From contig MQRK01243953.1 in assembly GCA_001938485.1 (NCBI GenBank), positions 1 to 49,345 of the forward strand: a stretch of DNA of 49,345 bases. The letters are read 5' to 3'. Below the pieces are notes generated by a model that made no database searches, was not told the origin of the DNA, and worked only from the letters and a program-made list of their open reading frames with translations. Positions 12,092 to 43,600 of this stretch are shown here, piece by piece (position 1 is the first letter of the stretch; each line of letters begins with the position of its first letter). A program made the translations under genes and the position numbers. The DNA is from Girardia tigrina. Lineage: Eukaryota.

Positions 12092-12117
12092 GAAATAAAG
12101 AAAATTTCAGAAAGGGT

Positions 12118-12311
12118 AGTCGATAAGTTTATCTTTTAATTTGAAGTTTATAGAAATTATTTAAGACTTCATAACATCATTTTATTGAACTAATTGAGAT
12201 CTATTAAATACTGTTAGGAAATTTTTAATAAAGATCAGCGATTCCCTTCACTAATATCAGGAAACCTGTCGAAGTATAAATTATTGTTTAACATTAATAA
12301 TAGTCGAATTT
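12118..12311 (-). repeat. Inverted copy of the interior of the MITE at 13326-13642
   Basis: Near-identical reverse complement of 13375-13582. Confidence 0.9.
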
Positions 12312-13325
12312 CTTCATCAAACCCGGTAACCGAATTATGTAACTGCAGAATAAGAACGAGTATGTCTGATTATGAATATAGACAAGACGAAAATCATTGT
12401 CAGAAAATATTTTAATATGTTGTCATAATAAATCATTTCGAAATTTTTGATTAAATTTTATTTAGCAATTCAAATAATGTTGAATATTCATTTGCACTGA
12501 TATATTCTCGACACAAGCTTTTTAAAATACATAATTCCAACATTAACTCTTTTCGTGTTGCGTTAGTGTATGCATACATTCATTGGTGTGTACTCGCGTG
12601 CCTGTTCCTATGTGTGTGTCCATCAATCTGACAAGTTGCATTTTAATGACAATTGGTGTCGAAAATTAGTTATGCGTGGTTTGGTATTAAAATTTACATC
12701 TCGTATATTCGTACTTGTATAACCTCCGTTGATATCGTTTCTGTACTTTAGATTGTGGAGACCGTGTGTGTGCCTGCGACACACCGACTACACAACTCAT
12801 GCAACTTACACTGACACGCGCACTTCGCTCTACCTGTCTGATTTCACTGAATTTGATATTTTACCCATTTTTGTCCATATTACTTTTACTTTCTGTTAGA
12901 ATATTTCAAATAAATTCTAATTATTCCATCAATGAATATTCTTATATTGAGATACTTTCGAATATTTTCGTTGGTAAAATCGACTGAATTATGATATTTA
13001 TATTTCTATATTTATTCTAATTAATTCTATATTTATATTGAGATATTTTCCATAAAATTTGTTTATATTATAAGGTTATATTTCATTGAAAATATTATAG
13101 ACGAAGCGTTTAAGAAAATATGAACATAGACATTTTACTTTTAATATGAAACATTTATTCAAATATCAAAAATTCGCTACAGATTTTCTTGTTTTTGAGT
13201 ATTTGAAGATTTTTAGTTCCTAAAAAACAGATAATTTGTTAGTTTTTCACATAACGACCCACTTGAAGAATTTCCAAGATGATCGAAATGTATTATACGT
13301 ATAGATTGAAGTAATTAATCTAAAT

Positions 13326-13642
13326 CAGTGTTTCTCAACCTATCCTCTGCTATCGATTTCTCAGATTGACAGAGAGATTCGACTATTCCAAGAGCGTATT
13401 ATTAATGTTAAACAATAATTTATACTTCGACAGGTTTCCTGATATTAGTGAAGGGAATCGCTGATCTTTATTAAAAATTTCCTAACAGTATTTAATAGAT
13501 CTCAATTAGTTCAATCAAATGATGTTATGAAGTCTTACATAATTTCTATAAACTTCAAATTAAAAGATAAAATTATCGACTCTCCATTTACACTTTTTGT
13601 AGGTCCAAAAGTCGGCGTAAGAACTCACTTTGAGAATCATTG
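13326..13642. mobile_element. hAT (Charlie/Buster-like) MITE
   Basis: TIRs CAGTGTTTCTCAA / TTGAGAATCATTG (11/13) and 8-bp flanks ATCTAAAT / ATTTAAAT (7/8). Confidence 0.75.
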
Positions 13643-14510: not shown

Positions 14511-14589
14511 TCAAATAAATGGTTACTTGAACGTAGTTTGGACCGCGTTTAATTTACTTATTTTTTATTAAATAAAAAATTCTTAAGCC

Positions 14590-14643
14590 AATCAAAGTTT
14601 ATTAATTTCGACGGTTTAACCGTCATCGTCAGAACAAATGATT
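14590..14643 (-). ncRNA. Minimal hammerhead ribozyme, mirror copy in the inverted pseudo-LTR
   Basis: Reverse complement of 17254-17307. Confidence 0.7.
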
Positions 14644-17253
14644 TTTCAAACGAAATTTACTAAAATAGTGCAGTTAGTGATTGTGCAATCAATATGTAAT
14701 TGTACATCATTTAAAAACTCTTAACAAAGTTGTAGAGAATGCAGTTTGAACGTTAATTTTAGGATCCATAGATCCTATATATAACGCTTCACATGTCACT
14801 CTCCCAATAATTTTTAAATTGAGTGCACAAATTTTAAAGTGTTGTGAATTTATATCTCCTTTACAATGTCTTCTATGTCCTGCAATGTTCATTGCGACTG
14901 TGCTCCTAGCTTCTCTTACAGAGATGACGTAAAGTCTCTCCAATGTATGTGGCGTTACACCCATTATATGTATATTGGTAAATGAGATCCGAACACAATC
15001 ATAATGGCGTTGGAAATTTATTGCCGAACATACTTTCAATTTTCTGGGTACAGGATATTACTTTTTATTTCAATTTATTCACAATTATTTTCTTCATGCG
15101 CTATAGCCGTTCAAGAAGGAATTGAAATTATTTTCTTCTTTAAGAAGAAAGGAATGGGATATTAGGTTTTTGGAGACATGTATCGAAGAGAGGATTATTC
15201 CTTCTTTTATATTTAAGAAGAAATTTCATGAATGCCTAGAGAATGAAGAAGTTCGGAAAATTCAGCACAAGATCCTGAGAAGAATGTTGGAAAAATAAAA
15301 GTAAAGACGAAACGAAATTATCATACATCTGACAATCAATCGAAACCTCCTTAATAATGTAAGTGGTGATTTTTGTTATCAATTATGTATAAGTATGTCT
15401 GAAAATTCTTCTAATAAAGCCATTAATGATACAATTATTGCACAGAATAAAAAGTTGTCTAATTTGTGTAAATTGTTTGGTGTTTTTAAATTTAATGTTA
15501 AAAATACCGTTTTAAAATTAAGTAACTTTGATTTAACCGATGATGAATTAAATATATTAAAGTATGGTCCAAAGCGTGGCATTAGAAAGAAAATTAATAA
15601 ATTTAAACATTAAGCCGAGGTTGAAACATTGTTTAATTTTTTAATTATGAATGTTTCAAAATTAAATAAAAGCGTGGATTTGAAGATTTAAAACACGTGT
15701 TTTTTAATAGTACAAATAAATATTTGAAACAAAATGAAAATCAAAGTAATAAAGAATTTTCAATATTAAAAAATATAATTAAAAAAAGGTAAGTATTTGT
15801 AAATTTGACAAGGGAAATGAATTAGTAATATTGAATGATTTTGATTATAATAAGAAAATGAATGAAATACTAGTGTTCTCAATTTAAGGAAATCGAAAAA
15901 TTTAGAAAAAATGGAAAATTGCCCCAATTGAAAGATGACGAATATTTGACTTCCCTATTATCAAAATTGGCTAATAATAATCATATAAATAAAGATGTCG
16001 CGAAGAAATTAAAGCCAGTAGGATCACAACCTGCTAAACTTTATAGTTTACTTAAGATACATAAAGATGATGTTCCAATGCGTCCAGCATTGTCGATGAT
16101 TAGAACATCACAATATAAAATTGCAAATTTTTTCGATGTCATGTTGAAACCTTTAATTCCAAAAGGTTGTGGGTGTCTTGATAGTTTTGAATTTGTGGAT
16201 TTTATTTCAAAATTTGATATTAAATATAATGATGAAATTATGGCATCTTTTGATGTTGTCAGTTTATTTACAAACGTTCCATTGAAAGAGACTATTGATT
16301 TGTGGTGCAATCTTTGGAGAAGTAATAAATCATAGTATACTTGATGAAGTTGCATTTCGTGAATTGTTAAGTTTTGCCACGTCAGATGTGCATTTTTTGT
16401 TCAATAATGACTATTACAGAAAGTAAACTGACACGGGGTTGTATACAACACCGATCAGTTTCTGTGAATCCAAATATCGTCGAAATATGATTAAAGGTCT
16501 TATTTTTCGCTCATGGGCTCTTTCATCTACATATAAAGGATGTAATGACAGCCTTAATAAATTAAACAAATTATTATATGATAACGGGTATTCAAAATCG
16601 ATAGTACAGAAATTAACAAAGGAAACTATTGATAAATTAATTGACAAAAAAATAATACTAAAATTTTAGATGTTCAAGATCAAGAGCAATCTTGCAACAC
16701 TAATGATAAAAGTTTGGAAATTGGTTATGTGTTAACTGTACCATATTCAGAAGGGTTTAAAATATTTAAAAATTCTATTTTGAAAGCGTTAGATAATGCA
16801 ATAAGTTTAAAAGTAATATCCCGTACCCAGAAAATTGAAAGTATGTTCGGTAATAAATCTCCAACGCCATTTGGATTGTGTTCGGATCTCATTTACCAAT
16901 ATACATGTAATAGGTGTAACGCCACATACATTGGAGAGACTTCAGGTCATCTCTGTAAGAGAATCCATGAACACAGTCGCAATGAAGGTGGAAGTAACAT
17001 TGCAGGACATAGAACATGCTTTGTAAAGACATTGTAAAGGAGCTATAAATTCACAACACTTTAAAATTCTGTGCACTCAATTTAAAAATTATTGGGAGAG
17101 AGTGACATGTGAAGCGTTATAAGATCTTTGGATCCCAAAATTAACGTTCAAACTGCATTCTCTACAACTTTGTTAAGAGTTTTTAAATGATGTACAATTA
17201 CATATTGATTGCACAATCACTAACTGCACTATTTTAGTAAATTTCGTTTGAAA

Positions 17254-17307
17254 AATCATTTGTTCTGACGATGACGGTTAAACCGTCGAAATTAATAAAC
17301 TTTGATT
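17254..17307 (+). ncRNA. Minimal type I hammerhead ribozyme in the Penelope pseudo-LTR
   Basis: AATCAtttGTT-CTGACGA-T-GACGGT(taa)ACCGTC-GAAA-TTAA-TA-AACttTGATT. Confidence 0.72.
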
Positions 17308-18141
17308 TGCTAAAGAATTTTTTATTTGATAATTTGCCAATTTATTTCAATTTATTCACAATTATTTTTTATTGATTTAACTTTCGAATTTTTCTTCTTC
17401 AAGGATAAAATATTTTGATTTTTGTTGCAAATTCTCATGGACAACATAGAATTAATTTTCTTGTTTCCTTGCAACGTTTCATAAAGAAAATTTTATCACA
17501 TAATTTATTTGCATATTTTTTAATATTTTGTTATAATATGGGAGAAAAATGATCATGAGTACTGTGTAAAAATACTGTAAACGTTTTGAGCACAATGTGA
17601 AAAATGATTAAAATTATGCAAACGATGCATTTCAAGCACTCTTATAAGTAAAGACAGTTAAGGAATTTATCAAGTCTTTTGAGTAAAGTTCATACATCAA
17701 AGAATATCTGTTTCTTCATTACAATAAAAGTTCAATTTTTTCTCAAATACCTTTTAGTTCCTTTGTCTGTTTTCGAATGCATTTGATACAAAGAAACTTA
17801 AAATTATGTCAAAATTCTTCTCTGAATAAATTTTATTCAAAGCACTCATAAAAATCAGTTATAAACGTTTTAATTATTTACTTGAAAGTAATTGAAACTT
17901 TTCCGAAAACCTGTAACTTACTAAGTGGTAAAATTAAATTTATACTAAATGCCTTTATAAAAGTATATGTGCATTATTCGACTCTTATGCATAAATTTTT
18001 TATTAAATATTATTATTAACTAATCTTGGCCTCAAACAGTGTTATATTGATCTTTTTTATTTATAAAATATATATTTTCAGTCGATCTCTATGATGTCTT
18101 ACCCCATCAAATCACCTTTCCTTCTGGTCATAAAAAGAATT

Positions 18142-24050: not shown

Positions 24051-25940
24051 CATAATTTTAGTTTTTTTATTTATATCTTTGTAAGCTGTGGTATTTTTGT
24101 ACTACAATGTATTATTTATTTAACTTGATCATTTTCTTAGTTACGTTTTATTAATTCATATGTGATTTCTGTTATTTAAAGATTTTTATATGAAAATTTC
24201 CTGTCAATTGAATCAGAAGTATGACAAAAAAAGAAGACAAAGATTAAAGTTAATGAAATCAGAAAAGAAGACAAATTATTTTTTATATTATTAGTTATAG
24301 AAAGAAAAAAGAAAGAAAAGAAAATGAATCAAATTATTTTTTTATTATCGTCGCAAATGGTAATAATAATTACCATGTTAATAATTTTGAATTTAAAACT
24401 AAATCGATAATAAATAAGTCGATTTAGTCATAAATAATATTATGACTATAAATTGACGTTCAGTATACAAGCTGAAGAAATTTACTGACATTGACTGAAT
24501 TCATTTATTGCTGAAACAGTTCTTATCATTTTTACGAAATTACTTTCATCACCGAAACATTCACGATTTCGATTCGCTACCGATTGTATATTTGACGACT
24601 AACCTTTAATAATTACGAGTGGTAATTATTTATATTGTGTTTCAGTGTTATACTGTTATTAAAAAGTTTTGTTAACAATTTTGATTATTTTTTGGAGTTA
24701 TTTCTTTTTTTTGTAAGGTTACCTAATAGCTTTAATATTCGGTCAGTTTAGTATGTTAGTTCTTTTTATATATCATAACTAATTTATCTGATAAAACCTA
24801 CAATTTCTTTTTTGTTTCGTTCAGAGGATAAATTGCGAGTTTTACAATATTCATTATATTAAAACATGTCTGTTTTTATTTTCTTTATAATTTACGTATT
24901 TCTTTTTATTTTTAATCTGAGTAATTTCTTTCTATTCGTTTTTTTCAACATATGTTCTTCTAACTAAACTTTTTGGCCGTTTTATACGTCGTAAATTCGT
25001 AATGTTAAATAATTAATATTGTCGAATGTAAAAGTAATTTAAAGATTATGATTTTTTAATAAAATTTATTTTTAAATTATCATGTAAAAAATTTTAGTTT
25101 TATTTTTTTACTAAAAACCTGTTTTTCTTTCTCTTCTCATCAAGTACTACCCCAGAATACTACATGATAATTATACATCATATACAAAGATGTTAAAGTC
25201 TCTCTACTGACCCTGCTTGTGTTATACAAATTCTCTTATTCAGAGTATATTAACCATTACAACAACATTACTAATTTCTCTTTTACTGCAATATGGAGTC
25301 ATCTTTGGTTCATCTATGTAAACATTTTAGACTCATCATTCTTCAACAACGATGTACCACTTGAAAATAAGCAAGACATGCTTGAACCACCTATTAGATC
25401 AAGTAAAAGGTAGATATAAAAATTAATCGGAAAGAAATGGTTGATATGCAAAAGTGACAACGGGGAGCTAGATAATATCGAGAGAGATTCAAAGGACTGC
25501 TCGGCATGCTGACAATTGACTTCAGTTTTGCTATATCAGTAGTATGATATTAACAAATAACCTTCAGTCGTCAATGATACTACTAGGTTTGCAGTAAAAC
25601 TAGCAAAGACATTATTGAGATACATAACACTGATTTGCAGGTTATCAAGGAACAGTGCTGATTGTAAGGAGCATTAGCACATGATTAATGAATTACTGAA
25701 CTATTTATGAGTTCATTGAACAATATTATGTAAAAGTGACAATTTTGTTTTCACGCAATGCTATTTACTCTTCAAGAAGCCATATGTTGCGTACAAATGG
25801 TCATGTGAATTTATAATTTATTCACAGTTACACCTGTTTTTTGTTTTTTTTTGATTCCATTTTAAATAATGTATCAGATTTAATAGTACAGTTACAGAAT
25901 CTTAATATCAGCTGAAGAAACTACTTTCGACAATGGACTT

Positions 25941-27131
25941 TGGAGCGGAAAATTGGTTGACCGAACATTTGCCAGTTAAAGGAAAATATATAAATAAAAT
26001 AGATAATAAATTAAAATAAAATAACTAAATAAATCCTTTTAATTAAATAAATAAAGTAATTATATAAAAAACTAATTTAAATTAAATCAAGAAATTAAAT
26101 AACTTTAAAAAATTAAATAATTAATAAATAACAAAATAAATTAATGTTAAAGGCTCAATTAAATGAAGAAGAATCTTTATCTATCGAATTGCCGTTGTCT
26201 TTTTTTTATCTGATGTAATGCAAATTTTGTGGAATCATTCGAATTAAACAAATATTGATCATTTTGGAATGTAAAATGTAATTAAATTGTGAGCCTCTTT
26301 TTCTGCCAATGTTAAATTATGTATGTGTGTGGAATTATGCAATCACAATATAATCAAGTATGTATTTTATTTGTGTGATAGTTGCATGAATGTCTGAATG
26401 CAGTGTGTATTGTGTGTAAGGAATGTATGATATGTAAATAATTGATTGGATGAATGTGTATTTTTTTGTGTGTGTTAATTTGTAATTGTGAATTGTTATC
26501 ACAATTTAAATCAATTCTTTAAAAAGACAGTTAAAAACAATTTTTCAGTTTTTTTTAAAAAAAGAGCATTTGTCAATAAAATTTTGAAAAATAATTTTTG
26601 TCTTCATTTTCAATTCCACCGGCTTCAATGCAGAGCGATGAAAAGATTGTTAAAAGTTTGAATAATTATCGAAATCAAGTGAAAACATTGTTTAGAAAAA
26701 TGACTAATTTGTCTCACTCAGTTTGTTCCATTGAAAGTGATCAATATATGTTTTATTATTTGATGAATAGAGAAATCTGTCGTATCATCTTAACTAAAAA
26801 AGAATTTTCTAAAAAGGTGGCATTTGCATTTTTGATTGATATATTATAGGTGAATTTCATAATAAATATGGCAGTAAATTTGAAATTGCGTCGAGACCGT
26901 ATGCATTTATTGAGGTCAATAAAGATATTCAAAATTTACTAAAGAAATATATAGACACCTGAACACCAATTACTTTTAATCAAATTAATTCTAATTTGAA
27001 TTGTGTTCAAAGAATTATAATGAGAAACATTAACGGTATAATTCAACGAGGAGAATCTCTGAGTGCTTTAAATGATAAATTGACAAACAATTCTGCTCTT
27101 TGCAAAACATGGAGACACGGCTTCCTGTCCA
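25941..27131 (+). mobile_element. TG...CA cargo element, copy 1 (1191 bp), carrying SEC22
   Basis: Begins TGGAGCGG, ends CTGTCCA, perfect TSD GACTT (25936-25940, 27132-27136). Leader is similar to 38388-38975. Confidence 0.88.
26622..27110 (+). pseudogene. SEC22: Intron-free, 5'- and 3'-truncated SEC22 (longin R-SNARE) copy
   Basis: ASMQSDE...KTLFRKM...KKVAFAFL, frameshift near 26845, then SRPYAFIE...YIDT*...VQRIIMRNINGIIQRGESLSAL. TGA at 26960-26962; transmembrane anchor absent. Confidence 0.9.
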
Positions 27132-27639
27132 GACTTACTTATTATTAATTTATTTATATATTTACGAATCTAATTGTTTTTATTATTATTGAAACAATCA
27201 CCAAAAATAATGTATAAACACAGATAATATTGACCGATTACAAAGAACAATTAGAACGATAAAACCTTTAGATTAATATAGGTTTATCAATAATTTTTGT
27301 GAATTTTTTGATAAGATTATTGGTCAAGTTGGGTATTTCACATGGGAATCGCGTTCTCTTTTGATACATACAACAAGTCGATAATGTCTGCAAAATATAC
27401 AATAAATTAAATTGATGAATAATAATAATGATACAAACAATACTTATTATTCAACTGGGTTTTTAATGTTGTTCAACTGAATTAAGAAAGAAATTTATTT
27501 TAAATATTAAGATTTAAATTTTTAAGTAAAGTTAGTAAATTTGACTTTCAAAAGACTGATCTTTTTATTAGAAAGTTTATGAGATATCCAGTTTAAAAAT
27601 CATATTGCTCTGAAAACAGTAGTTAAATTTTGGTTGATA

Positions 27640-28936
27640 CGTGATGCGATTCATAAGTCCTTAGACTCGACAAGAAAGCAAAGTCAAATCAACTTTATTT
27701 TTTCAGAATCAGTACATGACATCAAAGTAAATCATTTCTCAATGTATGAGCCGTGTACATCAACACACTTGCGTCAGCGAGCAACAAGCTCAGATAACGC
27801 ATTTTTGTAAAAATTAGGAGGCAAAGAATTAAGAATATCAAGGACTTTCTCCTTGAGGAAATCAACTGAATGAAAGTAGACACCTTTCAAATGTTTCTTT
27901 AGGTGTTTAAACAACGCAAAATCACTTGGGGCTAAGTCAGGGCTATAGGGTGGGGTGGGAACCAACTGAAAGCCACAGTCATCCGCAGCAGTCAAAGTTG
28001 CTCGCAAAGTGTAAATGGGTGCACTGTCTTGAAGGAGCCACAATGGGATCCCTCTTGGCTTCCTATGAGACTTTCTCACATCGCGAAGTAATTCAACATA
28101 ATACTTACTATTCATTGTCAGTCTTTTCTCAAAGAAATCAATTTTAATAATGCCATGGGAATCCCAGAACACAGTCAGCATTGCTGCTCTCTTCTGCGAT
28201 GTGCCGCTTCGAAGTTTTCGGGGAGCACTTTCACAAGGGAAGTACCACTCAGAAGATTGACGCTTGCTCTCAGGCACATACAAGCTCACTGGGGTTTATC
28301 TTGTGTAAAGATGTTGTTGATGAAGCGATCACCATGAGTGCGAAGCAACTCCAAATTGGCAGTGCAACACTGCAAACGTTTGTCGCACATTTCACCGGAT
28401 AGGAATCGAGGAACAAAATGTGAACACAATTTGCGAACTCCAAATGATTGCAGAATATCATATGTAGAATGGTAGCTAATGTATAGACGCTGTGCAAGTT
28501 CACGGATACTTATTCGTCTCTCTTCAGACACGATCTTCATGCACAAATCAATTTTCCCGGGTAAAATTTCACATGGTCGTCCTGATCTCTCAGCATCAAA
28601 ACGGATTGTCGGCCATGTTTTAAGTCTCTGATCCAATTATACACTGTTGCACGTGATGGGCACTGGTCACCGTAAGCTTCCTGCAACTACTGCAAAATAT
28701 CGCAGCTTTTAGTATTGCGCAGGAGCAGAAATTTTATCACGCTGCGATATTCGACGCTACTGCCCATGTCTACAGTAAAAAGTGAAATAATGACTGTACG
28801 CACCACTCAAACACACAGGTTTGGTATGGTGAGTCATATCTGTAACCAATGATAGCTCATCTATTTTTAGTATCAACGGCAAATACGTCATAATCTTATT
28901 TATCAACGAGTCTAAGGACTTAAGGATCGCACCACG
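27640..28936 (-). mobile_element. Full-length mariner (DD34D) element, transposase inactivated
   Basis: 30-bp TIRs (27/30 identical), TA flanks, 1297 bp. Transposase 28767-27732 has FVPRFL, MLTVFWD, LQDSAP and YSPDLAPSD motifs with stops and frameshifts. Confidence 0.95.
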
Positions 28937-29779
28937 TATAAGATACAGTAAGATGTACTTCAGATTGACTTTGATAAGATGGCGTATTTCGCGGTTAGTT
29001 ATACACAATTATATTTGAAATGAAGAAGGAGGAAAAAGGCAAACAGAAAGCGAAAACCTGATTTTAAGTTACTGAAGGATTTTTATGGTTAATTATGGAT
29101 TATTAAACTAATTTCGAAAATTATTTTTTATTTATTATTGTCTCATTATTTGTAGGTAAGAGATTATTTAGAAATATTTACTTTATGTATGTTTCATGAT
29201 AACTATTGAAAGCAAATGTTTAATAAAAGAAGTTTTAATTTATATATTTAATGTTGTTGTAAAATGACATTTAACCAAGAATCACATGACAGTAAGTTTA
29301 TTTGAAATTAATGGAGTATAAAAAGTGAAGTTAACCAACCTAAAGAATACATTTGAAATGTTAATTAAAATTTTATTACTCTCGGGCAAGAGTTCTTCTA
29401 TTGTTTGCTTCAAAATCAAAAAATTGAAAGTATTGAAGTCATCCCAGATATCCACGAATTACAATGACAAAAATTAACATTGAAGTGCATGAAAAAGCCT
29501 CTAAATCATCCAGATTACATCTTAATTTTTGAAGACTTGAGTACAGATAGTGACTAGAGAGAAATTGCTTCTCAATTATCATCTCTTGTGGTCAGCAGAT
29601 GGATGAGCAAGCGAAAAACTGACTCGTTTTCTTCAATTTCTGATAACATTGTATCGATGAAACTTTCAAATGAGTAAAAATTGTTAATAGAGGAAAATTT
29701 TAAACTTTTAAAAAAGTACTTTTTATAATTATGGATACCACAGAATAATACAAAAGATGATTTTTTTTATGAAATGCTA

Positions 29780-30765
29780 ATTTGAATTTACAGGTTTTCC
29801 CACGTTATTGTGAAATTTTTGCTAACTAAACAATAAGCTAATGGGAACTCACCCTCTTAAATTGCAGGAATTTTAGGAAGTAAAACGCTAGCTGTTTATG
29901 CAGTTATAAACAAATATAAGAATGGCGAGAATATCAAGAGAAAAGCGAGAGGTGCATTACGGAGAAAAGCACTTTCTGACAAACAACAAATTATTTTGCT
30001 TCAATGGGTTCACAAGGATTGTACTTTAACGCTCAAAGCGTTAAAAGAAAAATATCTTGAAGTGTTTAATGCTGTTGTTGTAAAATCAACAGTTGATCGA
30101 TATCTTAAAAATTTCGCATACAGTTTCAAACGAATTTATGCGATCCCGGAGCTTAGAAATGATGTTGATGTAAGTAATGAACGGGTGGTCTTCTCCGAGA
30201 AGTGTATGAATATATTGGCGGCAACTGATGATTCAAAAATTTTTTTAGTGTTTCTATGAGATCAAAATATGGAAGATCTACCGTGGAAACAAAGCCGGTT
30301 TACACAGTCCAATCTCTGAGAGCCAGTAATTTTTCTGTTTGTTCAACAATGAGCAAAATAGCGTTTTTGATTTAAAGGTTTCCACATCGCCATATAATTT
30401 GCAAAAATTTTTTAGAGTTTTAGAATCGTTATTAGGAATGCTTGAGACAAGGGGCATTTTTTCTGCGGTACTGATAATGGATATTATTCATTCCACATGT
30501 AACGACCAATGAAAGAACCTACACAAAATAAAAGTCATAGATTGATCTTCCTGCCCTATATTCACCATTCCTAAATCCTATCGAAAATCTGTTTGCAAAA
30601 TGGAAACAGTTATTCAGATCAGGAAGTCCACGAAGTGAGGATGAGCTTCTTGTCTTGATTGAAAGTACAGCCAGGAATATAACACGTTAAGGCTGCAACA
30701 ATTTTTATCTACATATGTTCAGTTATATAATAAGATCGGAACGTAGCGAAATAATATTGGATTAA
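29780..30765 (+). mobile_element. Tc1/IS630-like (DD34E) transposase pseudogene
   Basis: TLTLKALKEK...STVDRYLKNFAYSFKR and YSPFLNPIENLFAKWK motifs with several disruptions; TIRs not resolved. Confidence 0.85.
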
Positions 30766-32935
30766 TCATTATTATTTTTTGGATGTCTTAATATATTTAA
30801 ATACATTAAAAAGTTTTAATTTTAATAGTGTTTTTTTTAATTATAAAAAAAATACAACAGAATGTGTAATGCCTCTTAGTTAATTTTTTAAAACCTTTTT
30901 TGCAAAATTGATTTGGAAATTTTCAAAATAACGTGGTAAGAAATCTTTCATTTTCTACTTAAAATTTCCATTCTTGAAATAAATGTGATAAGCTGATCGA
31001 ACAACTGATTATATTATAAAAATGAACAAAAGTATTGAAAATCTTTCGAAGAAAATGCCGTCTGATCGCTCAAATTTTAATATTTAATCGTTTAGTATTT
31101 GAAGTTAAATTAAAAAATGTTAAATTATTAACTTGATTCAAAGATTTCAAAATTAAGAAGTGAAGACAACTTTTTCGAATAATTATGATTAAAAATTATA
31201 AATATAATTTTGTCAACAAGAATACAGAAAGGTTAACAATCTTCCGAGAGCATTCATCAAGACAACTCTCATTGCTGTAATAATAAATGTTGTAAAAATA
31301 ATTTTGTAAGTGTTCTTACCAATAATATTAACGAAATTTTTATTTTTCCACAAATTACGCAGCAAAACTCTACATTGACTTAATAAATAAACATAAAAAC
31401 CACAGAATTATGAGAATTGTTAGCCTTAATTTGTACGAGTGTTTTTATAAACATCTTTGGAATGTGATTATCTCTAAATAATAGATTGATTATAAACTAA
31501 TAAAATTAAATTTTCAATCATCACAGGTTCTCATTTTCGAATGATAATAAAATAGAACCCATGTACAGATTTCTAAGAGCCTCATTTTCTAATCACGATC
31601 TTTAAACTTGCTTTAAAAATTTTTCAAATTTCATCGACTCTTAAATCTTAGCACATTTCCTCTTTAGAATTTCGGACAATTATCGCTGCACTATTGCAGA
31701 AATTAAAGCCGACTTCCTTCTGAAGGTGGGATAATTTTGTAGTTACTAAATGTTAGCCCTTTATTTTTAAATTTTTATTCCGGTAAGACTTTCTGTTGTA
31801 TTTGCGACATTATTTTAATGGTTTATTTAACCCTTTCTGATCGGATGTATTATATTTTGATAAATGTAGTAAAATTCTAATAAACATACACATATTAAAT
31901 TTCATCAAAATAAAAGTTATAATATGTTACTAATTATCATTTTACTAATATTATAATAGATTATTGTAAAAAGTCGTTGAATATAATCTGTTATGGATCT
32001 GTAACAAAGGAGTATAGAGATTAAAATTACTTAATTCATGAAACCAACTTAAAAGTGAATTGATCTGCTTAATTTATCAAAAATTCCGTTTGGAATTTCA
32101 AGCGAAAATAAGATTATGTTTTTAAAAACTGATTTATTTAAGCTATGATATAGTTGTCGTTTTATCCCAGGATCTTCCACCAATAGATACTTAATTCTTA
32201 AATCAAAGAATATTTGTAGCTCATTTTCTCATACGAAAGAAGTATATATGTATGTATATTTTTTCACCTTAATTTCTACAAAGACGCTTTCAATACCCCA
32301 TAAACTGTCTATTTTTAGATCTCGTTATCTAATAATAATATATAATGACTCAAATTCGATGAAGGTTGTTCGGGGCCAAATGTCTACTTTTTGCAGCTTC
32401 ACTCACAGAAACTTACATATAATGATGGATTTTAGTTACTAATATAGGTCTAAGGTCACTCAATGCCACCCAAAAACAAATGCTTGAAATATGAATTAAA
32501 GCTTGAGCGATCGAAAGTTTCATGATAAAGTTGCTTTTGAGTTTCAAAGTCAGGATATTGCATAAAGATCATTTAATATTTATGGTAGATGTCTCAAAAT
32601 CAATTTTTTTCAGGTTGTTGAATAATCAAAAAAATATTTTCTAAAAACATTTTCACGGTGAAATATTGATCCCTTGCCAAACACTGAACTTTTAATGATA
32701 TTTAGATTGAGAAAATAAAATATATTACAGTAATTACTAATTATTATAATTAAAATCATGATATAATATGTATGTTCTTTTCTAATGACTACATATATGA
32801 AATTTTAAATATTTACTACCAATTATTACATATTATGTAATAATTAGTTATAAATGTTGGAAAATCACTATTAATTAAAAAATAATTATAACTACTTGTA
32901 CAACCATACTTAACGTCATAAAATATTTTATGATT

Positions 32936-33261
32936 TGACTGAGTCAAATATGAAAAGGGACTTGTTTCGAGCATTTAATCTTAAAACGTTTAAGCCAATC
33001 GACGTAAGACTCTTAGAAACTCTTAAAAACATTTTAGTGACTCAACTTTTAAAATATTAAGGGTGACTCGACTCGAGTTAAAAAAATAATGACTCGTGAA
33101 ATGTAAAATATGATAACTGACTTGACTGGACCAGTAAAAATATGTAGTGACTCGACTCGACTTGCAACTCGTAAAAAATTTTAGCGACTCACTTGAGACT
33201 CGACTCGCAAAATATTTAGGGTGACTCGAGTCGAGAAAATAGTGACTCGACGAAAACACTG
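32936..33261 (-). repeat. MITE-like end with repeated GTGACTCGACTCGA motifs
   Basis: Many GACTCGA/TGACTC units ending at AAAACACTG (CAGTGTTTT on the minus strand, hAT-like terminus). Confidence 0.55.
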
Positions 33262-34181
33262 GTTCACAGTATAAAATGTTATTCGCAGTAAAAAACATAA
33301 TCTATGAAAGAGGAAATACTTTACTTACTGTCGTGAGTATTGATCAATATTTTTTCTTTACTTAAGATAACCTCTTTAATGAACATTTAGAGGTTATCTA
33401 AAAATCTGCATAGATTTATTATAAACCTATTTTATGTTTCATTTGTAAAAGCAAGAGAGTAAAAAGACAAATGATTTCCAAATTAGGATCATGATATGTA
33501 ATGAGTTATGAATAAGAAACTTCTTGAACCATTGATTTACAAAGATTATAATTAGTATAATCTCCTACTTGGAAAATATTGTAAGGAATATTGACTTGAA
33601 ATTAATTGTTGTCATTTTTTGCTATTCGGAGATTTCAAATTCAAAACTAATTAGAAATTCAATTAAATCTTTATTTATTTTCAAAATTTATTTATTATGA
33701 CATTGAAAGTGATTTATTTAAACACAAAATAAATTTTTCCTTTTTCAACATTCAATCTTTTACTATACACAATAAAATGTCTTTTTTACAACCAAATTAA
33801 TTAATTTTTTCAAATGTTTTTTTTGAATAATTCCTATTTCTAATCAATTCGGTTCATTGATTTGACTCGAACAAGGGAAATTCTAGATTTTATTACAAGA
33901 TTTATTGTAGAGAAAAGAAGTAAAAATATAAAAAATAGAATATATCGTCTATAAAAAACGAAAGAAACTACAAAAAAGTTATAAATTGTATGATGGGACT
34001 TTATTTCAATACAAACATGAATTTGTAACTAAACTAAAGTTAATCTTTGTAGCTAATCCCATTATGAAAGGGGTAAAAAATAGTGTACCCGTTTTCTTGT
34101 AGATTTCTATTAGACTAATTCGTATTGTAATGTTACAAATTTGTAGTTTGAAATTTCTTTTGTACGTGACTTATTTTTCAG

Positions 34182-34355
34182 TTAAAAAAATTGCACAAAC
34201 TGACTCCAGACTATGGGATAGGTGACAATGGGGATAAACATTCCAATTCTCCGAACAACAGTGATAATCCCGACGACCACTCCGTGAGCAGTGAATCGTC
34301 AACGAAAAACTCAGTTAGTGATTTGGACGATTTCCTCGAGTCGGGAGAGTCATAA
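34182..34355 (+). CDS. PTEN: Probable PTEN terminal exon (Ser/Asp-rich tail, stop TAA)
   Basis: tttttcAG acceptor, phase 0 compatible with exon E. LKKLHKLTPDYG...SVSSESSTKNSVSDLDDFLESGES* forms a coding-like island followed by AT-rich sequence; linkage to PTEN is inferred. Confidence 0.6.
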   Translation, partial: LKKLHKLTPDYGIGDNGDKHSNSPNNSDNPDDHSVSSESSTKNSVSDLDDFLESGES

Positions 34356-34949
34356 GATTATTAAAGAAGAGAATGTTGATATTGTTAAAGAAACCAAATA
34401 TTAGTAATATTCACTAAGATAATAATAATAATGGATAATGATAATAATCTTTGTTTTTTATACTGATTTTGTTTAGAAATGTGCTATTTAAATGTATAGA
34501 AAGTTTTTTGATCGTTGAGATGTATTGGATTTATTTTTATACATGTATAATGGAATAATTTCTGCCCTGGTGTATTTTTAATTATTAATTAATCATTTTT
34601 AATTTAAATACAATTCCTACTTAAGTCGTTCGTTTTTAGTGAATTTTAATTGTAATTATTATACAAACAATAATTTATTTTTTAGTTAGATGAAGGATAG
34701 CTTTAAGTCATATCTTTTTTAGAACATTTCCGTAACCTACTTGAAATATATTTGTAATTCCGAAGAGGATCGAAAACCGTAGGTTAGAAAACGCTGATAA
34801 TTTTTAAATTCCAAACAAACTTGATAAGCATAAGATGTTTTGTCCAGTAATCGAATCATTGTGCAGCGTCTTGAAACTTTTGTGTCACTTGAAAAATAAT
34901 TTGAATTACGAACACAATATCAAGAATAGTTTCCGGAAATTTCGGAACA

Positions 34950-35300
34950 CAGGCTTTAAGTTCTTCTGATTTGATCTCATGCCATGCTCTCAGTAGAGAT
35001 GACTTAAGGGAATTGATATTAGCATGTACAATAGCACTGGCCTTCTAATCCAAAATGGACCAAATGCTGAAGCCCAAATCTTTGGATCTGGACTATATGG
35101 TAATGATAGATTTTTTATCCAGAAGTCAATTTTCAGATATCGCACACTGTTGTGAATTTTGATCTGTGTACTGGGGGCCACATCTGATTGCAAAGTCCAT
35201 GGTCAACGGTTGAGGTTTGAATTGGCCCATTTCAATATGAAAACTTTGATGATGTCATAAACATGCACTACGCCTTTGAATTTGATTTCATTTTCAGTAA
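34950..35300 (-). mobile_element. Tc1/mariner (maT/DD37D-like) transposase fragment
   Basis: WTLQSDVAP...DFWIK...PYSPD, then after a frameshift FSIWSILD...HANINSLKSSLLRAW. Confidence 0.65.
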
Positions 35301-36369
35301 AGATCAAAAGAATATTATAAGAATATAAAGAGAAGTATTGCATAATCCAGACACAAAGACGGATTAGGAAAGCGATACAGAAGAGTTACCAGTATGAAGA
35401 AAGTTAAAGATTGTATAGAAAGTGGATATAGTTGTTAAGATTTTGGTGAGCTCCTAAATTTTTGAATTTTAAAAACGTAACACTTAAAATGTTTTAAAGA
35501 TATTTCATTGAAAATTTTATATATATTTTTGATATATGTCATCAAACTAAATTTTCAAAAATTGTTGTCAAAAAACATTTTAAAATAAATCTACTAAATA
35601 AATTTTAAATTTATCTACTAAAGTTTTACCTATAAAAATTTAGGATTAACATAAATTAAGTTTCAAACTATATTGTACTTTAATTTTATTTGAATATAAA
35701 ATTTAGGAATTATAAATTAAAATCATGTAATTTAATTGAATATTGAATATTAGATATTATTTAATGATGCAACAGAATCAAATATCACAATTTAATATTT
35801 AAAATTAGGAATAACGTTACAAAACTAAAATCGTATATATAAAATTTATTATTTAATTATGAGTAACAATTTTTAATAGTAAACAATTTTTATGAGTGTG
35901 ATGGTTCGAAGCTCGACTGAAGCGCCGAACTTGGACTCCAAGCACCAGGAAACCGTTCGGCAAAAATCAGCCTGGTGTCAAACACTCGAAATCGTATCGC
36001 GGTCGACAAATCCGTTGTTTCGGCGAATACCAATTGATCGAAAACGACGCCGGACCGACAACGACGCGCCACCAAAAACGAACTGAAAACCACTGCGAAT
36101 GCAACGGCCGCAAAGGAAACGAAAAATACGATCTTCTGACAATTAAATTCAATCATGGTCAATAGCATCAAAAAAACGAAATTTCGCCAAAATTTTTTAT
36201 TGAGTTGATTAAAACAAAATTCCAACAAAAACAATTAACATTTCTTTCTACATAAATTAATTAATTTTTACTTATAAAATCATTTTTTTCTTTTATTCAT
36301 TAAAAAATAAAACTGTTTTCTTTACAAATAATTAACTTTTTACAAAAACTCTGTACAATATTTTTACGA

Positions 36370-38030
36370 TAGGCATAATTGTTGTGGTACACAATAATGA
36401 GTAAAATATTTAAGACCAGACATGATTTGTAGTATTCCATTAATTAGAGAATTTGGGAGAGAGCTACAGTGGAAAGAACATAACCCAGAGGAAACAAGTG
36501 AAACTAACATATGCGAAATCAAAGCAAAATTTTGGAGAGAAATTACAGACGAAGGTTGAGTTAAAGAAGTATTGAAAACAATAAAACACACAAATCGAAA
36601 AATCTTTATAGAAAATAATTAACTAATATCGAAGTATATTTATGACAAAACGACTAGGATATCAGGTGCACAAACTTGTTATGACATAGAATAGAAACGA
36701 TAGGAAACCCATAAATATAAAACGTAGAAGGCAGACGATACACTTAGAGAACGAAATAGAAGAAGCAATTAAAAATCTAGATGCAACTCACATTCTAATG
36801 CATCAATACCATGCATTTGGAAAAAAGACAAGGACGAAATCAGACTGGATTTCAGGCATTTAAATCTAATTACACAGAAACAGGCACTCACCATACCAAA
36901 CATCACAGAGATGATAGATAAGTTACATGGAGCAAAAAATTTCAGCACAATAGACTTAGGGAACGTGTACTACCAAGCAGAATTTGGTAAGTAATTACAG
37001 GAAGAAACGGCGTTCTCCACTGAATCGGCACAATTCTTTTTTAAACTTCTGCCTTTCGGCAAAGCTGCAGCTCCGGCAATATTCCAGGAACTAATGACTA
37101 TAGTATTTAATCCGATCAAGAAGGGAGCATCAGTTTATTTATATGACATATTAATAGCAACAAGTACAAAGGAAGAACATTTTAACGTAATTAGTATTTG
37201 GAAGAATAAAGCAAACAGGACTAAGAAAAGACTATCAAAATGTAAGATGTTTCGACAAGAAGTAAAACTCTTAGTACATAATTTAAATGACAAAGAGATA
37301 CAGTCGTATTTAGAGAAATCGCAGCTCTAGAAAAATTTCAAAGGCCCATATGTATTAAGAATTTAAGAAGCTTCTTGCAAATTTTTAATTACTACAAGAG
37401 ACTTATAAGCAAATACGCGAGGAAAGTTAAACTATTGGAAGGAATGTGTGACTCGAATAACAAGAAACTGATTTGGACAGATGCATATAAAATAGCGTTC
37501 CAGGAATCCTGGACCAGGATATGAAAAAAAGCGTTGATAACAACACCAATTCTAAGCTTTCCAGATTTCAAGAAACAGTTAATTCTAGATAAGGACACCA
37601 GCTTTGACAACATAGGGGCAGTACCATCACAAATAGGTGAATCATGTAAGAAGCAGGTCATAGCATTCGGATCACACGCAATGTAAGCTCGCGAAAGAGA
37701 TTATAACATAACAAGAAAGGAACTATTAGCTATTTTTTTTACTTTTTTCAGCACTTCAGCCACTATTGATACGCTTAAAAATTCAAATGTGGAACAGACC
37801 GCAAAGCAATATTATGTATATTCCACACAAAAAAAGGACTAACAGCTCAATTTCAGACATGGATGAACTATCAGAGTAGTCTGGATATCGAAATAGAATG
37901 TAGGAAAGGAGAACTACACAACAACACAAGACAAAATTGCGACATATGCACCAAGTGTCAAATAGAATATGAAGAAGCTAAGAAGAGTAAGAATAAGATT
38001 AGATTGTTAGCAGTAACTAACTAACGATAT
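36370..38030 (+). mobile_element. Degenerate Ty3/Gypsy pol (RT and RNase H)
   Basis: DFRHLN...FSTIDLGNVYYQ...TAFST...LPFG...PAIFQELM...VYLYDILI and ILDKDTS...IGAV...IAFGSH...TRKELLAI; many stops. Confidence 0.9.
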
Positions 38031-39017
38031 AACTACTAACAAGCCACAGCAGGTCTGAAAGAATGGATACCCAAAGAAAAACGGAAGGTCATGACCCTGG
38101 TCATGATCAGTATCTTTGCAGGTGTATATGCGAAAATTCCATACGTTTCCTGATACACTCGAGCATAAAACAAAACATAATTAAAAATATAATATTTATT
38201 TAAATATAATATATATAAATACAATATTTACTTCAAGACTCCGGTTATACTTTCGTTTCTCTACTATCTGTATTTAAATCCTATCTGTGTATTATCAATA
38301 CCCGCAATTACTGCATTACACTGGACCAATGTATGTCTAGAATTTTTACCGATAAATCGAACCATTCTAACTTAAATTTTTACTATGTGGAGCGGAGAAT
38401 TGCTGATTTGACCGAACATTTTTGCCAGTTTCAGAAATTAAAATAATTAAATAAATCATATTTTAATTAATCAATTAAATAAAAGAAAATAAAGTAATTA
38501 AAATGATTAACTGAAATAAATAAATTAAATTAAATAAAAAAAATAATAAATAAATAAATAAAATAAATAATTCAAATAACTCGAATGAGTGAAAATAATT
38601 TTACCGAGCAAGAAGAGGCAACATGATATAAGTTAAAAACACATTATCAATCGATAATGTGAATATAATAATTAATCAGATGGTGAGCCTCATTTTTTTA
38701 TTTCTAATTTCAGTGTAATAAGTAGATTGTGTAATTGTTGAATCTCTGACAACGGGTATGTATTTAGTGTGTGATGAATATGAATGTGCATTTTTTGAAT
38801 ATGATTGGTTTGTGCGTGTGTGTTAAAGTGTGTGTGTAAAAGTGTTTGAATATCTGTCACAATTAACAATTTTCAATTGCAATCACAATTTCAAGTTTTT
38901 AAAAAAAAATAAAAGTTTCATTGTCAAGTTTAATTTTCAATCAAAAAAATATAACTTTTTTTTAAAAAAATAATTTGTTTAATCGAACGAACGCGAGGAA
39001 GTAGATTGATAAACGAA

Positions 39018-40656
39018 ATGGCCGATAGAGAAACGAAAGTTTATAGAGCTAAATTAGCTTAACAGGCTGAAAGATATGATGAAATGGTTGATGTGATGAG
39101 AGATGTCACTAAAATGACCGGCGAATTGAACATGGAAGAGCGTAACTTATTATCCGTAGTGTAAAAATAGTTGATCCTGGGAAAACGATGGATCAACTAC
39201 TTTTACTTACGATAAAAGAAAAAATGAACTGAATCAACTAAGTCTAATGATTAAAAAAAACTTTAATCCAAAAAAAATAAAAATAACCTTCATAACTTAA
39301 TCCAAAATTCATTAAAATCACAAAAAACATCAAACATCATTCTACTATCATGAACGGTAAATAATTATTATTGTCGTTATGGAATCAATTTATTTATGGA
39401 TTTCTTTTTTTATTCAGCAATAATTTCTGTGATGCAATATATTATTCGATGTAATGAATCACAGAATAAATTAAATAATAAATTGTAAAAAATTCGACTT
39501 TGTGATTATCTTTATTTGAGTTTTTTTCGAATCAATTATTTTGGTTGAAACCAGTGTTTCTTTCTCTATCAAATAAATTTACGAGATTGATGTGACAGTT
39601 TTCGACAGCTTTGTCGTTGATTTAATTAGTTACGCTGAAAGATTCCCCGTCGTAAGGAAAACCGCTTTCGAATAGGATTTTTTCAAAAAAAAGATTCAAC
39701 GATAAAAGAGCAAATCAGTGTGTAAAGGCAAAGATGTTAAGAGCAATCATTAATTATAGGACAATGCGGAGATGACGATTCGTCGAATGTAATGATGCAG
39801 ATCGAGGCAACAGAGATCAATCATTCGTCACTTCTGCCTGCATCGATTTGTTAATCGGACGGAGTCTCGTGCCACCCGAGCAACACTGGCTAGTCTTACT
39901 CAAACTCAAGTTGTCCTTCCACTGTGTCCGCTTCGTAAATAACAGGAATGAAGTAATCAATTCTCACATAGGTCCTTCACATAATTCTTTCACGCATAAT
40001 TCTTTAAGTAGTCTAATAAATAGTGATAGATCATATCGAATGAAATTTTGTTTAATCTCTTCCTCACTAATCTCCTTCTGATTTATTTTCCTTAATTGTG
40101 GCAAAGAATTGAGATTCGAGATCATTGGCTTCGTGAACCACTAATCTTTCAAAAATAACATAAAAAAAAAGAAAACACAATATACATCCCACTCCTCACA
40201 CACTGGAATCCCTATGTACAAAGAACAACTAATCACTCCAAGACTTTGTACAAAAGCAAAAGAAAGAATATCACATCCACACGCAAACCACGCGGAAGTA
40301 GAGTATCACAACAGTCCCCAACTGATACACAAAAAAAACAAAATCACATACACAAACAAAAATGTACATTAATATAGGACACTGTGGTGTGTGAAGTAGT
40401 GGGTGCACTACGCGTAGCATACAAAAACGTAATCGGAAGTCGGAGAGCATCGTGGAGGATAATGAGTAGCATCGAACAAAAAGATCCTTCTCGACTTCCA
40501 TTGATTAAAGCCTACCGAAGTCAAATTGAAAGAGAATTGAAAGAAGTCTACGCTGATATAATAGCCTTACTCGATGAGTTCTTGTTGGTAGCTTCAAATG
40601 GTGGGGAAGCTAAAGTGTTCTTCTTGAAAATGAAAGGCGATTACTACCGTTTTCTG
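39018..40656 (+). pseudogene. 14-3-3: Intron-free, 3'-truncated 14-3-3 (epsilon-like) copy split by a solo LTR
   Basis: [23 protein letters not shown]...EERNLLSV (39018-39159), continuing [15 protein letters not shown]...[15 protein letters not shown] (40418-40656). TAA at 39060-39062. Confidence 0.95.
39160..40412. mobile_element. Solo-LTR-like insertion (1253 bp)
   Basis: Perfect TSD CGTAG (39155-39159, 40413-40417); termini TGTA...TACG (one change from TACA); removal restores the 14-3-3 frame. Confidence 0.85.
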
Positions 40657-43600
40657 TCCACTATGCATAACCTAACCTTTTTTACATTTTCCCCATCTTT
40701 GTATTTACGAATTCTCATATCGTTATATTCATAATCGTGTATTTGTAGTACGGTAGTAACCTCGTCACTCGACTGTCGCAGAATCTGAACATTAATACAC
40801 TATCTCGGCGAAATTTTACATATCCTTGAATAATATACGTGTGAAAGGCAGGCTCACTCTTAAAATTTTTGAAACAATTAATTTTCATAAAGAATTTCTA
40901 AAATAAGGAAATATTTAAAATCAAAAGTTTTTAAGCAATTATAATTAAAAAATATATCTTAACCCTTAGAGGATCCCTGGGGTCAGCGTATGATATCCAG
41001 GGATATTTTAAATTAAATATTTTTTATTATGAATATTATGTGATTTAAAACAATCATATAAATACAAATATAATATTTTACTTTATAAATAAGAAATAAT
41101 ATATTTTAAATTATCCTGATTATTAAAATCCCTATTGACGACATTACCCAAGATAAATTCAATAAGAGAAAAATTTTGCATATTGCGTTGGTGGGATTAA
41201 AAAATTTGAGTTAATTTATTCATTTTGACCGGTTCAGCGCACTCGACCGCAGTGCAATCGATGCAATACGACTGAATCGTATTACCGCAAATTAATTCGA
41301 TTTTATCGATCCAACTAACCGATTTCTTGCACAAAGTGCACAATAAGTCACTACAATGACGCAAATTCGCACCTTCAGACCGGAATTCACCAACATTCGA
41401 CGGATTTTATGGGCCCCTGGACCAAGTCCAAAAAATGTAAAAAAAATAAAAATAAAACTCGTATTTCTGATTTTCCCCTATCTGACTCCGTAGTATGTGA
41501 TTTTTTATTTAAAAAATAAACACGTCATGTCATGACATAATCACTAGTTATTATTAGCAAGAGAAAATATTAATTAAATAGATAAATCACATTAATATTA
41601 CAAAAATTTATTTAAAAATATTTATCGATAATCGATCAGTCGGAAATAAAAAATGTCAGACAAGCGTGTTTATCTAAGTGGAGCGCTGAAACGTAAGCGA
41701 AAAGTTGAACAGAAAGAAAAAGAATTACTTAACAGTCAGAACATGAATTTGTTGAAATTAGGATTTACTGTAACAACGAACACTGTTAAATATCAGTCGG
41801 AATCGGAAATGAGCGTCATAGAAACTGACATGCTTTGTTCAGATTCACAAAAAATTAAACGTAGCTTCCGAAGAAGCTGAAATGTTATTTAACTCTGAAG
41901 GAATTCATGAAAAAGACAATAGTGGTGAAATTCATTTAATTTATCCTCAAGTTAGTCAATTGACTGAAGCGACTGAGGTTGAAAATCAAAACACATATTT
42001 AAATATTGAAGAATCTTCACAGGATGTTTACAAAGGTTTAATTTAGTAATGACTGTGCATTGTGGATAGTCATTTCTGATAATATTCGTGAATTTTGGCT
42101 TAGAAAAGGTTCAAATAATTGGCAACATTATGATGATGATTACGAAGCTTCGGAAAGAATTTATCACGATGGTAGAAAGCAAAAATTTTCACGATGTCAT
42201 TTATACAGAAAACATGTATCTGATGAAAACATTTTACATTCGTGGCTGCTTTATTCACCGTCAAATGGCAGTATATTTTGCTTTGCTTGTCGACTATTCA
42301 AGTCAAATTCAAATTAGCATTTGCGACTGGAATCATTCGACAGCATGCATTTCTCAGCATGAAAATAGTCATTGTCATAGAAATGCCATGTTAACTTTGG
42401 CTACAAGACAACAATATGCTGGTACAATAGACTGTCAAATGGAATTAGAATTTACAAAATAAGGGGATTATTGGCGTAATATTCTGAAAAGAATTGTTGC
42501 AGTCATAAAGTTTTTAGCAGAACGAGGACTGGCATTTCGGGGAAATGATGAGTTGATAAATTCTTCCCAAAATGGTAATTAATATTAGAGTTCTTCAACT
42601 ATTAAGTCAGTTTGATCCATTATTAAGTAACCATAAAGATAAATACGGCAACCAGGGAAAAGTATTTGTCATCCACAATATGAGAAGAATTTATCCATCT
42701 TATGGGTGATAAATTGCTAAAAATTATTGCAAAAGAAATTAAGGAGCAAAAATATTTTTCTGTTCCTGTTGATTCTACTCCAGATCTTAGTCACGTCGAT
42801 CAACTGACTGTTATCATACGATACGTTGAAAAATCATCCCATCAAGCTAAGGAGAGGTTTTTGAAGTTTTTGCCTTTGGAAAAATATACTGGAGAAACAC
42901 TAAAAAATACCTTGTTATGTTTTTTAAACGAAATTAGTGTATATATATCAAATTGTCGTGGACAGTCATTCGACAATGCAGCAAATATGTCGGGGAGATA
43001 CAATGGTATGCAAGCTAAAATTAGGGAATCAATCCATTAGCACACTTTATACCATGTACTGCTCATTCCCTAAATTTAATTCGAACTTCAGCTGTTGAAT
43101 GTTGTGTCGACACTGTTAATTTTTTTTGGCTTTGCGCAGAAATTATCAAATTTCTTTAGTGCATCTACATCTAGATGGGCAGTATGAAACGTTGTTTGGG
43201 ATCCAAAAATTTACTTTTAAAATCACTCTCCCAAACTAGATGATCAGCTAGAGCAGATGCAATTAAAGCTCTGTCAGATGGATACAACAATATAATAGAT
43301 GCTTTAACATGTCTTCCTGGTGATGATCAAAAACTATAAACAGGGCGTGAAGCAAATGATCTTTTGCGACATTTGTCATTTTTTGAAACGGTGCTTCTAA
43401 TTGAAATGTAGAACAATATTCTTCAGAACATAAATAAAACCAACTTATATCTTCAAAAATCAAACTTGGAACTTGGTACAGCAGTGCAATTATTAAAAAC
43501 ATTGCATGAGTATATTTGTTTGCAAAGAGAAAAATTTGAAAAATTTGAAACACAAGCCAAAATTAAAGCTCCAGAAACTAGATACAGAAACGAAGATAAG

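Follow-up and report, generated by a model that had tools for sequence, protein, structure and literature searches.

Spliced host mRNA pieces inside the long terminal repeats of a BEL/Pao retrotransposon family in Girardia tigrina

The 49,345-nt stretch of Girardia tigrina DNA analysed here (contig MQRK01243953.1 of assembly GCA_001938485.1, positions 1 to 49,345; hereafter the window) contains two solo long terminal repeats (LTRs), copy 1 and copy 2, which carry intron-free pieces of the host genes Sec22 and 14-3-3, respectively. Judged by their sequence, both are solo LTRs of a high-copy BEL/Pao retrotransposon family that has autonomous and pol-less members. Our reading, to which we assign a probability of roughly 0.7, is that the LTRs of this family hold spliced host messenger RNA (mRNA), that the 14-3-3 piece was captured once through a switch of template at 6 nt matching the LTR end during strong-stop synthesis and then inherited, and that the host ATG likely starts the element polyprotein. 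The two copies are built up as follows (U3 and U5, the unique 3' and 5' regions of the LTR; TSD, target-site duplication; UTR, untranslated region).

25941..27131, plus strand: copy 1, solo LTR of the Sec22 type, TG...CA, 1191 bp; TSD GACTT at 25936-25940 and 27132-27136
25941..26619, plus strand: LTR front of copy 1, common to the family, likely U3 (AT-rich, then TG-rich)
26620..27110, plus strand: Sec22 cargo of copy 1, intron-free, with stops and a frameshift; Pfam Longin and Synaptobrevin
27111..27131, plus strand: U5 end of copy 1, 21 nt, element-derived, found on LTRs with unrelated cargos
38388..40660, plus strand: copy 2, solo LTR of the 14-3-3 short-end type, split by a nested insertion; TSD CTATG at 38383-38387 and 40661-40665
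38941..39159, plus strand: 5' part of the 14-3-3 cargo of copy 2, spliced 5' UTR, ATG at 39018; parent L091/L128 (G000:C225118)
39160..40412, no strand assigned: nested insertion in copy 2, 1253 bp, starting with TGT, with its own 5-bp duplication CGTAG
40413..40659, plus strand: 3' part of the 14-3-3 cargo, ending at the CTGTCC microhomology (40654-40659); Pfam 14-3-3, E 2.5e-26
40645..40660, plus strand: short LTR end of copy 2, host-derived apart from its last A and a single later A>T substitution (TAT in the host, TTT in copy 2)

Both elements open with TGGAGCGG (at 25941 and 38388), each lies between perfect 5-bp duplications, and their fronts are homologous, with 72% identity over the first ~190 nt. 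Both carry stops now. Their terminal 16-mers (27116-27131 and 40645-40660) are identical at 12/16 positions and neither copy has a poly(A) tail, as the original prediction had stated. It had also described the termini as imperfect inverted repeats of the left end, which holds for copy 1 (8/10), but in copy 2, where the left end is TGGAGCGGAG, only 6/10 positions agree. The 14-3-3 cargo of copy 2 has a premature TAA as codon 15, and its 3' part diverges from the host exon by 3.7%. The nested insertion is probably the solo LTR of another, unrelated family.

Genome-wide counts refer to G000 (1.43 Gb, AT-rich), and labels such as L186 denote loci fetched from it. The last 17 nt of copy 1 have 980 exact matches, compared with 0 for the reversed control, and a 25-mer across the 14-3-3 junction has 371, compared with 0 for its control; chance similarity as the source of the termini was therefore rejected. 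In line with the original prediction, the termini of the two copies belong to one element family and not to unrelated elements. First-look candidates numbered 1969 for the LTR front of copy 1, about 1950 for Sec22 and 861 for 14-3-3. Most sampled family copies span 0.9-1.6 kb, begin with TG, end with CA and are flanked by 5-bp duplications. At 79 exact places in the genome the LTR end is followed by exactly 5 nt and then by TGGTGGCCAAG, the complement of the 3' end of the transfer RNA (tRNA) tRNA-Ile(AAT). ARAGORN detected two such genes in L225, which are arranged in tandem about 310-340 bp apart and match the primer site. A polypurine tract (PPT) is located ahead of the 3' LTRs in other copies, and the full layout reads LTR, 5-nt spacer, tRNA-Ile(AAT) primer site, interior, PPT, LTR. 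In L186 the spacers are unusually long: 5 nt separate LTR and primer site (L186:1689-1693), and 4 nt separate the 3' LTR from the purine run ahead of it (5816-5819). This implies that 4-5 nt are trimmed from the ends.

The two-LTR elements L186, L191 and L203 have internal regions of about 4.1-4.3 kb with a repeat leader, an HSP90 fragment, ubiquitin, a DUF1759 gag, two CCCH fingers, a DUF1758-like protease and a coiled coil. The gag-side domains are followed in some copies by reverse transcriptase (RT), RNase H and an integrase C-terminus, and in most by the coiled coil. RVT_1, Peptidase_A17 and DUF5641 were matched in some copies, and an RT-bearing copy shares the PPT and the LTR start. The BEL/Pao order DUF1759-DUF1758-RT-Peptidase_A17-DUF5641 was found, pieced together from several copies and in no single gap-free one, and the DUF1758 match is weak (E 4e-4, slightly below its cut-off). 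In most sampled full copies pol is absent and a coiled-coil open reading frame (ORF) takes its place. A fragment of the HSP90 middle domain and a full ubiquitin are fused in frame before gag (L186:2190-2942, L293:3202-6735), and the ubiquitin C-terminus is LRLCGG in most copies and LRLRGG in L190 and L271. A sister BEL/Pao family (L284, L285, L296), with a protease 52-63% identical, the same PPT context and a different LTR start, also shows an apparent ubiquitin-like piece ahead of gag.

The 14-3-3 parent (G000:C225118) has two introns in its 5' UTR and one in its coding region, and 3/3 are cleanly absent from the cargo. At the junction it reads TAC TAC CGT TAT CTG TCC GAA (YYRYLSE). CTGTCC is native to the host 14-3-3, and after these six bases the host continues with G, where the element has A. 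The terminus of copy 2 can indeed be read in the 14-3-3 frame up to the last codon, but the YRYLA cited earlier as canonical is wrong here, as the parent has YRYLS. When the 1056 positions of the parent were scanned, no other position matched the family end as well as the junction (10-11/15, 6 exact) or reached 6 exact bases; under a random-junction null the probability of at least 6 is 0.002. A return of RT to the element at a microhomology, one of two routes in the original prediction, is supported for this one 3' junction, as a past and inherited event. Compared base by base, parent and family end support microhomology-guided template switching at the 14-3-3 junction, and the piece was likely captured once and then inherited. 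Against this stands the match to one tested alternative end type, which is only 7/15 with 3 exact bases. Because distant ends differ and the match drops with them, part of the 14-3-3 match could be circular. CTGTCCG stands at the junction position in L157 too, in another and more distantly related 14-3-3 sequence with 84% identity to the parent exon.

For Sec22 the Pfam search for the parent was swamped by LTR copies, and the parent (L267, G000:C244141) was located through the loose end of a host mRNA contig. Its three introns are absent from copy 1 (3/3). The host contig departs from the LTR 24 nt before the LTR end and goes on with RYRQDASYLN; with one substitution allowed the match extends to 21 nt from the end, and the last host-derived base lies at 27107-27110. 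The final 21 nt, which give WRHGFLS when read in the Sec22 frame, resemble the ends of divergent relatives and are common to LTRs with unrelated cargos, and are therefore element sequence and not Sec22. That the cargo runs into the terminus and overlaps with it, as had been suggested, holds for copy 2 only. More distant relatives terminate in TTCCGCTCCA- or ATCCCCTCCA-like sequence, and their ends are better inverted repeats of the left end. Two points on this cargo do not favour our reading. It begins within the coding region and not at the mRNA 5' end, and the fetched loci include no main-family LTR free of cargo against which homology at its junction could be gauged (L269, L271 and L272 are short or divergent relatives).

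Contigs from two runs, presumed but not certain to be RNA, extend from the Sec22 cargo into the LTR tail and are not counted as evidence of expression. By eye, the Sec22-type tails of L267 and of L031-L060 have two lengths, 3 nt apart, which can be read as deletions of 2 and 5 nt from a single off-frame junction, with the primer-site frame restored in both cases. Protein homologue searches returned only P0001 and P0002, database proteins from other data sets that look like translated LTR-type cargo. Both have the translated LTR tail as their end, which indicates that such LTRs are annotated by gene callers as genes of the Sec22 kind.

The reading frame that crosses the primer site (WWPRWG) in the direction of the HSP90 fragment, ubiquitin and gag was followed upstream in the 48 primer-site-bearing LTRs with gap-free upstream sequence. 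At least 60 open codons were found in this frame in 34 of the 48, and in 1 and 1 in the other two frames. Pfam matches were obtained for 16/22 in-frame segments and fall into eight unrelated host families (14-3-3, Sec22, Usp, protein kinase, LSm, Sec1, RNA polymerase N, ankyrin). The matches of an off-frame control include no family beyond this list, and only the one in L224 adjoins the primer site. The 14-3-3 tails are 30 and 42 nt long and the shared indels 12 and 3 nt, all multiples of 3. Among 62 14-3-3 cargos, changes present in at least 2 copies comprise 28 synonymous, 31 nonsynonymous and 0 stop changes, whereas private changes comprise 17, 53 and 10, respectively (Fisher p 0.002; stops 0/59 vs 10/80). 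Without variants found in over half the copies p is 0.004, and 0.006 for stops; the difference is weaker on transitions alone. In L274 an open frame of 248 aa lies downstream. These frame and substitution patterns suggest that the captured host ATG likely opens the element polyprotein. In L188, L211, L171 and L300 stacked cargos are joined in frame; the kinds seen are LSm followed by a 14-3-3 end, an RNA polymerase N subunit followed by a Sec22 piece, and a kinase followed by an unassigned piece.

Several observations speak against such a role of the cargo. The ratio 34:1:1 is not made up of independent counts, because a stop that the tails have in common shuts the other two frames; the 22 in-frame segments were picked by hand from the 48; and the off-frame control gave 6 Pfam matches to 49 segments, all of at least 35 aa and from the same LTRs. 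Of 24 gap-free copies, 9 are in frame from the primer site to the HSP90 piece, while the other two frames account for 10 and 5; just 3 of the 24 lack stops over this stretch. The internal leader moreover has Met codons of its own. The cargo might then be a passenger: an internal Met would start the polyprotein, and the open frames would be a relic of selection in the host and of the low age of the copies. The 9/24 copies, the internal Met codons and the 31 nonsynonymous changes among the shared ones agree with this. However, a host origin accounts neither for the eight families in the primer-site frame nor for tails and shared indels in multiples of 3 and zero shared stops (p 0.006). We regard this explanation as doubtful.

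Another point is the order in which the short and long LTR ends of the 14-3-3 lineage arose. At 252/371 exact junction sites the sequence runs on into a 30- or 42-nt tail, which leaves 119/371 as an upper bound on short ends. Median distances to the host exon are 3.2% for short ends (n=16), 3.9% for medium tails (n=7) and 5.0% for 42-nt tails (n=39); these counts, like that of the 62 cargos above, leave out L157 (the other paralogue), L130 and one L076 duplicate, and L117 and L105 were relabelled. The most host-like copies are short, and short and tailed copies differ in distance (Mann-Whitney p 6e-6, over loci that are non-independent and biased). Short-end copies also form a weakly supported basal grade of the 14-3-3 tree. 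The comparison with the host exon points to short ends as likely the first and long tails as later. The low support of the tree, built on loci from biased searches, counts against this order. In the reverse order, a long-tailed 14-3-3 LTR would have come first, by capture at the internal CTCTGTCC motif of a Sec22-type tail, and short ends would have followed by 30-42-nt deletions between the CTGTCCA direct repeats, in a single event or in several, either in RT or at the level of the genome. Tailed forms are indeed the majority, the host matches the internal CTCTGTCC motif with 7 exact bases, some medium-tail copies retain the host-like TAT at 2.4-3.1% from the host, and short labels are scattered in the tree. 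Given that the copies nearest to the host and those in the basal grade have short ends, and that short ends with a primer site occur at several divergence levels, we consider the reverse order unlikely.

The 14-3-3 mRNA could also have been the donor of the family's CTGTCCA end, which recombination would then have spread to other subfamilies, and the better inverted repeats at the ends of distant relatives fit such a replacement. However, CTGTCCA is also present on lineages with interiors only 77-82% identical to L186, and thus 18-23% apart. This end therefore likely predates the capture, which is itself 2-4% old, and its donation by the host is highly unlikely.

The short end precedes spacer and tRNA primer site at 5 loci (L186, L199, L224, L303, L304) and also terminates 3' LTRs in L186 and L307 as well as solo LTRs. 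The short LTR end is heritable. Ordinary integration of a master with the short end therefore explains copy 2, and the alternative route of the original prediction, a cryptic integrase cut inside host cDNA, is not needed. In this scenario integrase would have processed a terminus-like CTGTCCA 42 nt inside long-tailed or host complementary DNA (cDNA), with copy 2 as a one-off. The internal site does resemble the end at 12/16 positions, and the clean duplication of copy 2 follows directly after it, but integrases usually remove just a few bases from DNA ends. With the short end ahead of primer sites, and short 3' LTRs behind the PPT, the scenario is largely refuted and hardly tenable. What survives of the integrase idea is that the attachment end for integrase consists, in the short lineage, almost wholly of former host coding sequence.

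Two further origins were rejected. A processed pseudogene made by a long interspersed nuclear element, against which the original prediction had already argued, does not agree with the missing poly(A), the fixed ends, the 5-bp duplications and a cargo truncated at its 3' rather than its 5' end. Capture at the DNA level (Pack-TIR or Helitron) is ruled out by the missing introns together with the LTR signals.

Under our reading, RT primed on tRNA-Ile would copy the spacer and the last U5 bases, jump at a short match to a co-packaged spliced host mRNA and copy towards the mRNA 5' end. It would then return to the element, so that the captured piece ends up in both LTRs. Recombination between subfamilies may later have added the 30- or 42-nt tails and stacked cargos. 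As the frame and substitution patterns suggest, replication would continue only for captures that are open from the host ATG across the primer site. Solo LTRs are the product of LTR-LTR recombination, which would have left the two in the window, since decayed. A more far-reaching model is possible, and we put it forward tentatively: an exchangeable slot in the LTRs for the front parts of host mRNAs would provide the gag-pol start codon, ubiquitin would serve as a cleavable adaptor that frees Gag, and host coding sequence could become an integrase attachment end. Placed ahead of Gag, ubiquitin could free Gag from any leader peptide; its cleavage is only predicted, because most copies read LRLCGG.

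If the leader is outsourced in this way, truncated ORFs of 14-3-3, Sec22, LSm, Sec1 and kinases, each linked to a promoter, would be scattered in the genome by the hundred. Small RNAs or truncated peptides that might act on essential host genes are predicted as well. The family would be a retroelement that borrows its translation start from genes of the host, and repeated capture in the LTR with the frame kept would form a natural fossil record of template switching in strong-stop synthesis. A host exon serving as an LTR end shows how loose the end recognition of integrase can be. For annotation, the LTR cargos explain why false 'gene copies' of 14-3-3 and Sec22 number in the hundreds in the genome.

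Between and beside the two LTRs the window also contains decayed remnants of other elements:

27774-28295, minus strand: mariner-type transposase
29861-30259, plus strand: Tc1-type transposase
36995-37330, plus strand: RT remnant
42684-43040, plus strand: DUF4371 (hAT-like) piece

At 14565-17332 and 12111-13588 lie two elements with terminal inverted repeats of about 500 and 190 nt, respectively, 90-98% identical.

Like BEL/Pao elements (Belpaoviridae), the family has TG...CA LTRs, 5-bp duplications, a tRNA primer site, a PPT and DUF1759-DUF1758-RT-Peptidase_A17-DUF5641 in one long ORF. In difference to them it has an HSP90 fragment and ubiquitin before gag, CCCH fingers and LTRs with host genes. 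In yeast Ty1 the GAG ORF begins within the 5' LTR and continues through the primer site; the start of Ty1 is its own sequence, whereas here it would come from captured host mRNA.

LTR-mediated retrocopies of animals, as described by Tan et al. (2016, PMC5131818), consist of partial spliced mRNA with a median of 6 bp of microsimilarity at the junctions, and the mRNA takes the place of a section of the internal ORFs that lie between the two LTRs. Spliced mRNA, microsimilarity (here at the 14-3-3 3' junction), chimeras of several genes, repeated rounds of copying and sense orientation are shared with the cargos reported here, and the internal HSP90 and ubiquitin pieces fit the internal-replacement pattern of that account. 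In contrast to the retrocopies as presented there, our cargo lies within the LTR, upstream of the primer site, and defines or abuts the U5 end; it is found in hundreds of solo LTRs, swapped among subfamilies and in frame with the downstream ORF. Cassandra, a tiny plant element of the terminal-repeat retrotransposon in miniature type, is described as carrying 5S RNA, along with its promoter for RNA polymerase III, as a fixed part of both LTRs (PMC7215508), and likewise has host RNA sequence fixed in both LTRs. It differs, going by that description, from the many exchangeable protein-coding cargos in frame with gag and the coding interior of 4 kb or longer seen here, and the coding cargos and coding internal region rule out membership in this type. 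The planarian Burro elements also have giant LTR polyproteins with absorbed host domains, including ubiquitin/SUMO-like and ankyrin domains (PMC6431247). However, they are of the Gypsy type with these domains in the internal ORF, and the passages of that paper on Burro describe no LTR cargo. For BARE LTRs, the entry of another retrotransposon's sequence is mentioned in a plant review (PMC13317346). Full-text searches of the main texts of papers on LTR gene capture, BEL/Pao and planarian retroelements listed no account of BEL/Pao LTRs that hold exchangeable ends of host mRNAs. Gene capture by LTR elements is known, but for the internal region; in the family described here it takes place in the LTR, as the two copies of the window illustrate.

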